A stretch of DNA of 64,000 nt from Escherichia coli (GTDB taxonomy: Bacteria; Pseudomonadota; Gammaproteobacteria; Enterobacterales; Enterobacteriaceae). Positions 39,001-42,000 of the stretch are shown one piece after another. Within the stretch, counting starts at the first letter, position 1. Each line of letters opens with the position of its first letter. The stretch lies in the NCBI RefSeq assembly GCF_041886205.1, contig NZ_CP169029.1. The stretch is one strand, 5' to 3'. Made by a program: the position numbers.

Positions 39001-42000
39001 CTGACCTTAGTGTGATGACGCGTTCACAGCGACCACACTGATTTTCCCTTCTGAGACTGAACTGAAAACCGCTATTCACACCTGACCACGCTGCCCGTAC
39101 CGGGACGGCTGTTGCCTGCGTGTCGTCTGGCGGCTGAGGAATATGACGATGTACGCAAAATCCTTTCTCGCACTTGATGGCAACGGGCGTCTGACTGGTG
39201 CCCGTACCGCACAGACTGCACCTTACGATCGCTACACTTGCCACCTTTGCGGCAGTACACTCAGATACCATCCGCAATACGACACTGAACTTCCCTGGTT
39301 TGAACACACTGACGAAGGGCTGACTAAGCACGGTCATGAGTGCCCTTATGTCAGACCGGAGTGCAGAGAAATACAACTGATTAAGCGTCTGCAGAAATTC
39401 GTACCGGATGCCTTACCCGTGGTGCGTAAAGCCAGCTGGCACTGCACGAAACAAGGCATTGGATCTTGTAGGTAATTTAGGAGCGGACTCTAAGCCAGTT
39501 ATCGGACGTTTGGAAGTCAGCGCTGGTAATGGGAAAGTCATAGGGCGGCAATCCAGCGACGGAAAAGTTGGTTGGCGTGTTGATTATGATCCTGAAAAAG
39601 GCACACACATATATATATGGGATTACTCACAGGGTAAAGGTCCTGGAAAAGCGGTGAAGCAAGTCATACCTTTTGAAGGCAATGAAAAGTCTTTTGAAAC
39701 AAAATTGAAACAGCTAAACAGGTAGAGTAAATGACTTTATTTGATGAGTGTCGGGAAGCACTGAGTGCTGATTTTAATATAGTAGAGGGGCTGGCTCAGC
39801 AGGAGGCTATGGGCATTTTAAATAAGTATCCTCTCGCGAAAGGACGTGTTACTTGGTCAGAGATCAGGCATTCTGATTATGAGAGTTTTGATGAGTTATT
39901 GAGTGCAAACTCTGTAAAAAACGATGACATGTTTGTCTTTGCAGATGATGCAAGTATTCCAGTTTTTAGGTCAAATCTAAGATTAATCGCTGAAAATATC
40001 TATGACGTAACAGCTTTATCGCCCAAATTATTCATTTTTAATGATGAAGTGATAATACAACCTTTATTCCCAACTGATATGTTCCGTTTAGGAATCAAGA
40101 AATAGTGGGAAAGCTCGCAAATCCCGGCCATTATGCCGGGATTTTTTTGTGCACAGAAAACCCCCGGCTAGGCTGGGGGTTCCGGAAAGCTTTCAGCTTT
40201 GAGCCAGTTATTAAAACCCCTTTTGATTTGTTAAAACACCTTGCGGTCTGGCAACTGCAAGTGTCAAACATGAAATCAAAAGGGGGTCCCAATGGGGAAC
40301 GAAAAGAGTTTAGCGCACACCCGATGGAACTGTAAATATCACATAGTTTTTGCGCCAAAATACCGAAGACTGGTGTTCTATAGAGAGAAGCGTAGAGCAA
40401 CAGGCAGTATTTTGAGAAAGCTGTGTGAGTGGAAAAGCGTACGGATTCTTGAAGCTGAATGCTGTGCAGATCATGTCCATATGATTGTGGAGACCCGCCC
40501 AAAATGAGCGTATCCGGCTTTATGGGATATCTGAAAGGGAAAAGCAGTCCGATGCTTTACGAGCAGTCTGGGGATTTGAAATTCAAATACAGGAACAGGG
40601 AGTTCTGGTGCAGAGGGTACTACGTCGATACGGTGGGTAAGAACATGGCGAAGATACAGGATTACATAAAGCACCAGCTTGAAGAGGATAAAATGGGAGA
40701 GCAGTTATCGATTCCCTATCCGGGCAGCCCGTTTAATTCTGGAGGATATTTATTATCAGAAACAGGTCATATTCATATAATAAATAATGTATATAATTTT
40801 ATTGTTAAGTATGTAAAGGATAATACAGCATGGTAGTTTTGCGACATAACACACAAAAACAACACTCATGAAACAAAATGCCTTTATATGTTTTTATTTT
40901 GATGCATAATTGTTAATGACTATGAATGAGGGATGCAACACTATCGCATCTTCGGTTATTCCCTTAAATACTTACCTGCCATATGTCCGTATGGCAGGCT
41001 TTTTTCATTAACAGGCTTGCTGTTACATATCACTGTATTTCTCTTTTCCTTCCCTGTACTGCTTTTAGACTGGCCCCCTGAATCTCCAGACAACCAGTAT
41101 CACTTATTTAAGTGATAGTCTTAATACTAGTTTTTAGACTAGTCATTGGAGAACAGATGATTGATGTCTTAGGGCCGGAGAAACGCAGACGGCGTACCAC
41201 ACAGGAAAAGATCGCAATTGTTCAGCAGAGCTTTGAACCGGGGATGACGGTCTCCCTCGTTGCCCGGCAACATGGTGTAGCAGCCAGCCAGTTATTTCTC
41301 TGGCGTAAGCAATACCAGGAAGGAAGTCTTCTGCTGTGGCCGCCGGAGAACAGGTTGTTCCTGCCTCTGAGCTTGCTGCCGCCATGAAGCAGATTAAAGA
41401 ACTCCAGCGCCTGCTCGGCAAGAAAACGATGGAAAATGAACTCCTCAAAGAAGCCGTTGAATATGGACGGGCAAAAAAGTGGATAGCGCACGCGCCCTTA
41501 TTGCCCGGGGATGGGGAGTAAGCTTAGTCAGCCGTTGTCTCCGGGTGTCGCGTGCGCAGTTGCACGTCATTCTCAGACGAACCGATGACTGGATGGATGG
41601 CCGCCGCAGTCGTCACACTGATGATACGGATGTGCTTCTCCGTATACACCATGTTATCGGGGAGCTGCCCACGTATGGTTATCGTCGGGTATGGGCGCTG
41701 CTTCGCAGACAGGCAGAACTTGATGGTATGCCTGCGATCAATGCCAAACGTGTTTACCGGATCATGCGCCAGAATGCGCTGTTGCTTGAGCGAAAACCTG
41801 CTGTACCGCCATCGAAACGGGCACATACAGGCAGAGTGGCCGTGAAAGAAAGCAATCAGCGATGGTGCTCTGACGGGTTCGAGTTCTGCTGTGATAACGG
41901 AGAGAGACTGCGTGTCACGTTCGCGCTGGACTGCTGTGATCGTGAGGCACTGCACTGGGCGGTGACTACCGGCGGCTTCAACAGTGAAACAGTACAGGAC

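Follow-up and report, generated by a model that had tools for sequence, protein, structure and literature searches.

Gene content and composition of the locus

The locus described here lies in a 64,000-nucleotide stretch of an Escherichia coli genome (contig NZ_CP169029.1), hereafter the window, and consists of three open reading frames (ORFs) on the plus strand, followed by a terminator and the remains of an insertion sequence (Table 1). Specifically, an ORF of 110 amino acids that is rich in cysteine and histidine (6 Cys and 6 His; 39143-39475) is overlapped, in the +1 frame relative to it, by a basic ORF of 105 amino acids (pI 9.55; 39408-39725), and a 5-nt spacer separates the stop codon of the latter from an acidic ORF of 124 amino acids (pI 4.52; 39731-40105). 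These coordinates are those given by the initial annotation of this DNA, and our translation, Cys and His counts and isoelectric points agree with it. The GC content falls from 0.526 (39143-39446) to 0.434 (39447-39725) and 0.368 (39731-40105), the value for the whole window being 0.506. The abrupt shift towards AT-rich DNA that had been noticed is thus real, but its position, placed near 39470, has to be corrected to 39446/39447, where the limits of homology put the true junction.

The initial annotation had proposed that the locus holds an orphan toxin tip and its immunity gene from a polymorphic toxin system, an idea borne out by Pfam family PF24172, the two chains of crystal structure 5T86 and the end of the cdiA gene of E. 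coli strain A0 34/86. Homology searches of both ORFs, in line with the check suggested along with that proposal, returned PF24172 and 5T86_I for the 124-aa ORF and 5T86_A for the 105-aa ORF. The family, which had been left unnamed, is by these matches the E. coli A0 34/86-type CdiA-CT/CdiI. The basic and acidic ORFs do correspond to toxin tip and immunity gene, but the Cys/His-rich ORF, which had been grouped with them, lies outside the toxin system and is a DUF7828 gene that has lost its 3' end.

Table 1. Position, strand and supporting evidence of the features discussed in the text (coordinates refer to the window)
Feature	Position	Strand	Evidence or detail
DUF7828 / putative zinc-ribbon gene, 3'-truncated	39143-39475	+	PGAP products in identical loci; native part 39143-39446
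Recombination junction	39441-39446	.	ACTGC (39441-39445) common to both parents; 39446 (A) from the DUF7828 parent; cdiA-CT from 39447
cdiA-CT remnant, A0 34/86-type toxin domain (final 92-94 codons and stop)	39447-39725	+	phmmer match to 5T86_A
TAT codon, Asn to Tyr (N71 of the domain, N219 of the CT)	39612-39614	+	Two residues past the invariant His
cdiI, intact immunity gene, 124 aa, acidic	39731-40105	+	Pfam PF24172; 5T86_I; PGAP 'CDI toxin immunity protein'
Intrinsic terminator of the cdiI module	40119-40151	+	Terminator scan; 10-bp stem, 6 GC pairs, T-run
IS200 remnant, downstream edge of the module	40152-40836	+	Directly after the terminator; Rfam STnc490 at 40159-40282, 141.7 bits
cdiA pseudogene, FHA repeats	58057-61596	+	ORF translation; PGAP 'hemagglutinin repeat-containing protein; frameshifted; internal stop; incomplete'

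An intact immunity gene with its own terminator

The product of the 124-aa ORF matches PF24172 (CdiI_ImmP, 'CdiI immunity protein EcoliA0-like') over the full length of the model, its residues 1-121 being aligned to positions 1-129 (of 129; E = 7.9e-36). It also matches chain I of 5T86 (E = 3.4e-78), to which it is identical at 122 of 124 positions (98%), the two substitutions being L27M and S39R. An NCBIfam search with the same protein gave no match. The toxin and immunity ORFs correspond to chains A and I of one crystal, the complex being known for the crystallised proteins and the window variants from their sequence. The gene starts at an ATG with a weak AGG/GAG upstream and keeps the 5-nt spacing behind the toxin stop codon that is found in strain A0 34/86. 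The hairpin that follows cdiI, a strong intrinsic terminator, is likewise present 3' of this gene in A0 34/86, C311 and C4, whatever the downstream DNA; assignment of the terminator to the adjacent IS200 was considered and ruled out, since the hairpin accompanies cdiI in loci that carry no IS200.

Junction between the module and a DUF7828 gene

Native homologues of the DUF7828 protein are 127-133 amino acids long with a C-terminal region reading ...WHCRQCHHDYYGEQYCTNCQTGG..., and the native protein, as encoded at one of the loci compared (3160-3561), has two CxxC...CxxC knuckles. The window copy terminates instead in ...WHC followed by TKQGIGSCR and a stop, these last nine codons and the stop being cdiA-CT DNA read in a foreign frame, and the second Cys knuckle has been lost. 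No match was returned by an NCBIfam search of the DUF7828 protein. The gene, annotated as a 'putative zinc ribbon', is present in more than 3800 E. coli genomes, where an 'inovirus Gp2 family' gene is its neighbour within CP4-57-like islands.

Similarity of the window to native DUF7828 genes, which is seen with more than 2000 E. coli genomes, stops at 39446, and similarity to cdiA-CT loci starts at 39441. The junction was resolved by a five-way alignment that combined the window with native DUF7828 loci and cdiA-CT loci, two of each. It accounts for the break in composition, which the alignment identifies as a real recombination junction and not a product of chance, and the 5 nt of microhomology shared by the parents read as a signature of illegitimate recombination. 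The whole stretch 38400-40900 is common to only 16 complete E. coli genomes, with 98.8-100% identity among the carriers of the junction. Judged from these genomes the junction lineage is young, in view of which an intact cdiI is by itself no proof of selection.

A toxin gene reduced to its 3' end

The alignment of the 105-aa ORF with chain A of 5T86 ('CdiA toxin') pairs its residues 11-105 with positions 12-106 of the chain and shows two substitutions (phmmer, E = 2.9e-58); the retained part is identical to the A0 34/86 and 5T86 toxin at 93 of 95 positions, the changes being N219Y and a replacement of Ile by Lys. Strain A0 34/86 has this DNA at the end of an intact cdiB/cdiA/cdiI operon, in which the 3287-aa CdiA matches TIGR01901 (TPS) and FHA-repeat models and carries PT-VENN (Pfam) upstream of the toxin. 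Counted from VENN, the CT of this protein is 255 amino acids long and comprises the PT-VENN motif, a middle region of 148 amino acids, which we take by analogy with other CdiA-CTs to be the cytoplasm-entry domain, and a toxin domain of 107 amino acids. The window keeps CT residues 162-255 only. VENN and the 161 residues after it are missing, that is, the motif, the 148-aa region that links it to the toxin domain, and 13 residues at the start of that domain, and the DNA upstream is DUF7828 instead of cdiA.

The 105-aa ORF is composed of 11 codons from the other frame of DUF7828 and 94 toxin codons. Because its ATG at 39408 and these first 11 codons are out-of-frame DUF7828 DNA, we regard the ORF as an accidental fusion, and at identical loci PGAP lists it as a pseudogene ('incomplete; missing N-terminus'). 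No Shine-Dalgarno sequence was found upstream of ATG 39408. A second in-frame start within the toxin fragment, TTG 39459, is preceded by AAGG, and some translation from one or the other start is possible. Searches of the toxin ORF against Pfam, NCBIfam and PADLOC gave no matches.

The replacement of Asn by Tyr affects a position that, among 67 diverse representatives of the family, is occupied by Asn in 62, His in 3 and Gln in 2, and by Tyr in none. Among the 10 loci compared, Tyr occurs in the window, JML285 and ZYB39 only, and it is the minority form in a wider count (23 + 28 contigs, versus 173 + 274 for the Asn variant). The fragment retains the invariant residues D61 and H69 and has lost the near-invariant E3 and E13. 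From this pattern of conservation, the change to Tyr would be damaging to the toxin. Given the lack of a Shine-Dalgarno sequence, the loss of 13 domain residues and the Tyr beside an invariant His, the fragment is probably neither made nor active, be it for want of translation, of stable folding or of activity. The initial description as a displaced toxin domain is accurate as a label, but the domain is both truncated and mutated, and activity is unlikely. For annotation, the 105-aa ORF is best read as a pseudogene fragment joined to a broken DUF7828 gene.

Distribution of the module and features of the toxin family

Among 5426 complete E. coli genomes, 121 carry the module, where it forms the end of full-length cdiA genes, belongs to 'VENN motif pre-toxin' orphans that end arrays (CE0011b, KC-Dl-1 and E62) or has the arrangement seen in the window; the copies in CE0011b, KC-Dl-1 and E62 stand directly downstream of cdiBAI, in the array position. 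Beyond this module, a profile search of 1.84 billion representatives recovered relatives of the 5T86-type toxin in 515 cluster representatives, 215 of them at E<=1e-10. In 105 of 130 matches the toxin domain forms the very C-terminus of the protein, and its carriers include FHA/PT-VENN, RHS, PT-TG, PT-HINT, Phage_GPD (VgrG-type) and choline-binding modules, some of them in Gram-positive proteins. This position and this range of carrier modules mark the domain as a genuine polymorphic-toxin tip.

Three residues, A15, D61 and H69, are invariant in the alignment of 67 sequences, and E3, E13, R16, N17, R49, R59, D63, K66, N71 and D74 are conserved in at least 90%. D61 of the domain is D209 of the CT, a residue placed in the centre of the pocket that forms the active site of 5T86 by a preprint that, on general grounds only, calls the toxin a BECR-fold nuclease (bioRxiv 10.64898/2026.05.10.723254). 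In our comparison, structural similarity of the toxin domain to a BECR member could not be confirmed, a search of the PDB with a profile built from the family alignment matched 5T86 only, and no publication on 5T86 or its activity was found in the literature. The conserved set of Asp, His, Arg and Lys residues (D61 and H69; R16, R49, R59 and K66) is compatible with a metal-independent RNase, which is our best guess for the activity.

The RefSeq/PGAP name of the A0 34/86 cdiA gene (locus 3416-13279), 'contact-dependent inhibition effector tRNA nuclease', was rejected as evidence of activity. Because the NCBIfam matches of this protein are to the TPS domain and the FHA repeat only, the CT is not the source of the name, which was probably taken over from another CdiA and is possibly incorrect for the CT of A0 34/86. 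The 5T86-type domain is without a Pfam or NCBIfam model and without a detectable structural neighbour of known function. That it represents an activity or fold class new to polymorphic toxins, and not the BECR tRNase that has been assumed, is a tentative suggestion to which we give rather low odds. The A0 34/86-type toxins form a large family with a solved structure.

A defunct CDI system in an island rich in insertion sequences

The module is bounded downstream by the IS200 remnant, in which STnc490 is the Hfq-binding sRNA of the IS200 5'-UTR (Rfam) and tnpA is split by a frameshift into 40292-40507 and 40459-40836. The cdiA remnant that the initial annotation had reported in the same island is indeed present, about 18 kb downstream of the module. 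Its 5' end has been replaced, the first ~130 codons being a fragment of IS66 TnpC fused in frame to the FHA repeats, and an IS4-like transposase ORF (61603-62721) comes next; a cdiB gene is absent beside it (58057-62721). With its cdiA truncated by IS66 and its cdiB missing, the CDI system of the island is defunct.

The DNA between the module and the cdiA pseudogene contains insertion sequences and an F17 fimbrial operon, which by comparison with the annotation of ZYB39 only runs as f17A-G on the minus strand (51163-56088). The same comparison, again as the only source, places a CP4-57-like island at ~19000-38000, with genes for the Ag43 autotransporter, the CbtA/CbeA toxin-antitoxin pair, YfjI-family and Hha-family proteins and antirestriction functions. 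An IS2 copy at 41120-42395 is inserted relative to CE0011b, and ZYB39, otherwise 99.98% identical downstream, has an extra IS100 at the equivalent of ~42650 (42647). Both differences point to ongoing turnover of insertion sequences in the island.

Probable origin and role of the displaced module

With its identity, junction, truncation and substitution established, the locus is in all likelihood a cdiA-CT/cdiI orphan module of A0 34/86 type that has been displaced and has lost its 5' part, with the toxin as a dead stub and cdiI as the likely sole working part. A single illegitimate recombination event at the 5-nt microhomology would have joined the last 94 toxin codons, cdiI and the terminator to the 3' end of a DUF7828 gene residing in a CP4-57-like island. 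The toxin fragment is undeliverable, with neither export nor import possible, because VENN, the CdiA shaft and the CT region from VENN to the toxin domain are gone and the nearby cdiA is disrupted by insertion sequences and without cdiB. If cdiI is transcribed, read-through from the gp2-family and DUF7828 genes upstream would be the source. The CdiI protein, if expressed, would be expected to bind and neutralise A0-type CdiA toxin arriving from neighbouring E. coli, as in the 5T86 complex, and in this way to protect the carrier. A precedent is strain EC93, in which an orphan CdiI is expressed and protective and orphan cdiA-CTs have no initiation signals, their toxins not being synthesised (PMC3150448).

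The strongest competitor, possible although we consider it clearly the less probable reading, is that the toxin fragment and cdiI are genomic debris, silent hitch-hikers of an island rich in insertion sequences, with no more than a recent rearrangement to explain why they are still intact. It is consistent with the near identity of the junction carriers, with the broken genes all around (IS200, IS2, IS66 and the cdiA pseudogene) and with our finding no sigma-70-like or other promoter-like site on the plus strand between 38200 and 40400. It also fits the comparison with the closest orphan, that of CE0011b, from which the module differs by 3 nt, at least 2 of them non-synonymous, with no sign of purifying selection; across the 10 loci compared, the differences in cdiI were too few to give a signal of selection. 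Against silence, however, the gp2-family and DUF7828 genes upstream are on the same strand with no strong terminator between them and cdiI, which still has a start codon and a terminator of its own. An identical CdiI protein is encoded on 891 contigs, and orphan cdiI genes are expressed and protective elsewhere (PMC3150448). We favour the displaced module with a working immunity gene over inert debris.

Far less probable, and also less so than a new activity or fold class of the toxin, is that the truncated N219Y protein, made from ATG 39408 or TTG 39459, is a weakened toxin that CdiI would hold in check, the two being retained as an intracellular addiction module that would stabilise the island in the manner of a toxin-antitoxin pair. 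The ORF does possess a start codon and an operon-like abutment or overlap with cdiI, and most of the toxin domain is kept, including D61 and H69. However, the ATG is an accident of the other DUF7828 frame with no Shine-Dalgarno sequence before it, the domain has lost 13 residues (E3 and E13 among them) as well as the Asn at position 71, and PGAP treats the ORF as a pseudogene. CdiI proteins are not known to act as labile antitoxins. Least likely of all is a reservoir for toxin switching, in which the orphan would recombine onto a resident cdiA as VENN-bearing orphans may do: such a model has been put forward for orphan modules (PMC3150448) and a cdiA remnant does lie in the window, but the idea is effectively refuted by the loss of VENN, since the VENN-encoding homology that this recombination requires and the 5' part of the toxin domain are gone, and the resident cdiA is itself 5'-truncated by IS66, frameshifted and without cdiB.

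As a displaced module with a dead toxin stub, the locus is built from parts every one of which was already in public databases and annotated, and the module itself is already known. What the locus provides is a clean case of an immunity gene that has moved away from a cdi locus via microhomology-mediated illegitimate recombination. Such a transfer is one way in which strains may collect immunity genes.

Comparison with known systems

The closest known system is the CdiA-CT/CdiI pair of A0 34/86 (5T86, PF24172), with which the window shares the gene order, the 5-nt spacer and the terminator of the cdiBAI locus. It differs in having no cdiB, CdiA shaft, VENN, 148-aa region or first 13 residues of the toxin domain, and in its substitutions, which are N219Y and Ile to Lys for the toxin, L27M and S39R for CdiI. 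A more distant parallel, drawn from a preprint, is the Rhs2-SciX effector-immunity pair of Salmonella Typhimurium, which unlike the A0 34/86 pair depends on T6SS delivery (bioRxiv 10.64898/2026.05.10.723254) and had no sequence similarity to the window module detectable in our searches.

Outside a working CDI system, an isolated orphan cdiI has been described in an islet of Salmonella Typhi that holds no other cdi genes (Barretto and Fowler 2020, reviewed in PMC9086364). As in the window, the immunity gene is retained there without its system, presumably against the toxins of other strains (PMC9086364); it belongs, however, to an EC869-like immunity family, whereas the window module still has a toxin fragment attached.

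Among orphan modules, those described by Poole et al. 2011 (PMC3150448) resemble the window in having a toxin fragment, which in the window probably also lacks proper initiation signals, then an intact immunity gene, and remains of transposable elements on the flanks, and in CE0011b and KC-Dl-1 the very same module is the last orphan of an array. Typical orphans begin at or before VENN and are situated directly downstream of cdiBAI (PMC3150448), whereas the first toxin codons of the window module belong to the interior of the toxin domain, its fusion partner is an unrelated island gene, and the nearest remnant of cdiA is found about 18 kb further downstream. Two features of the class, VENN and the site downstream of cdiBAI, are thus missing, and the locus is best labelled as derived from a cdiA-CT/cdiI orphan module by displacement and truncation.
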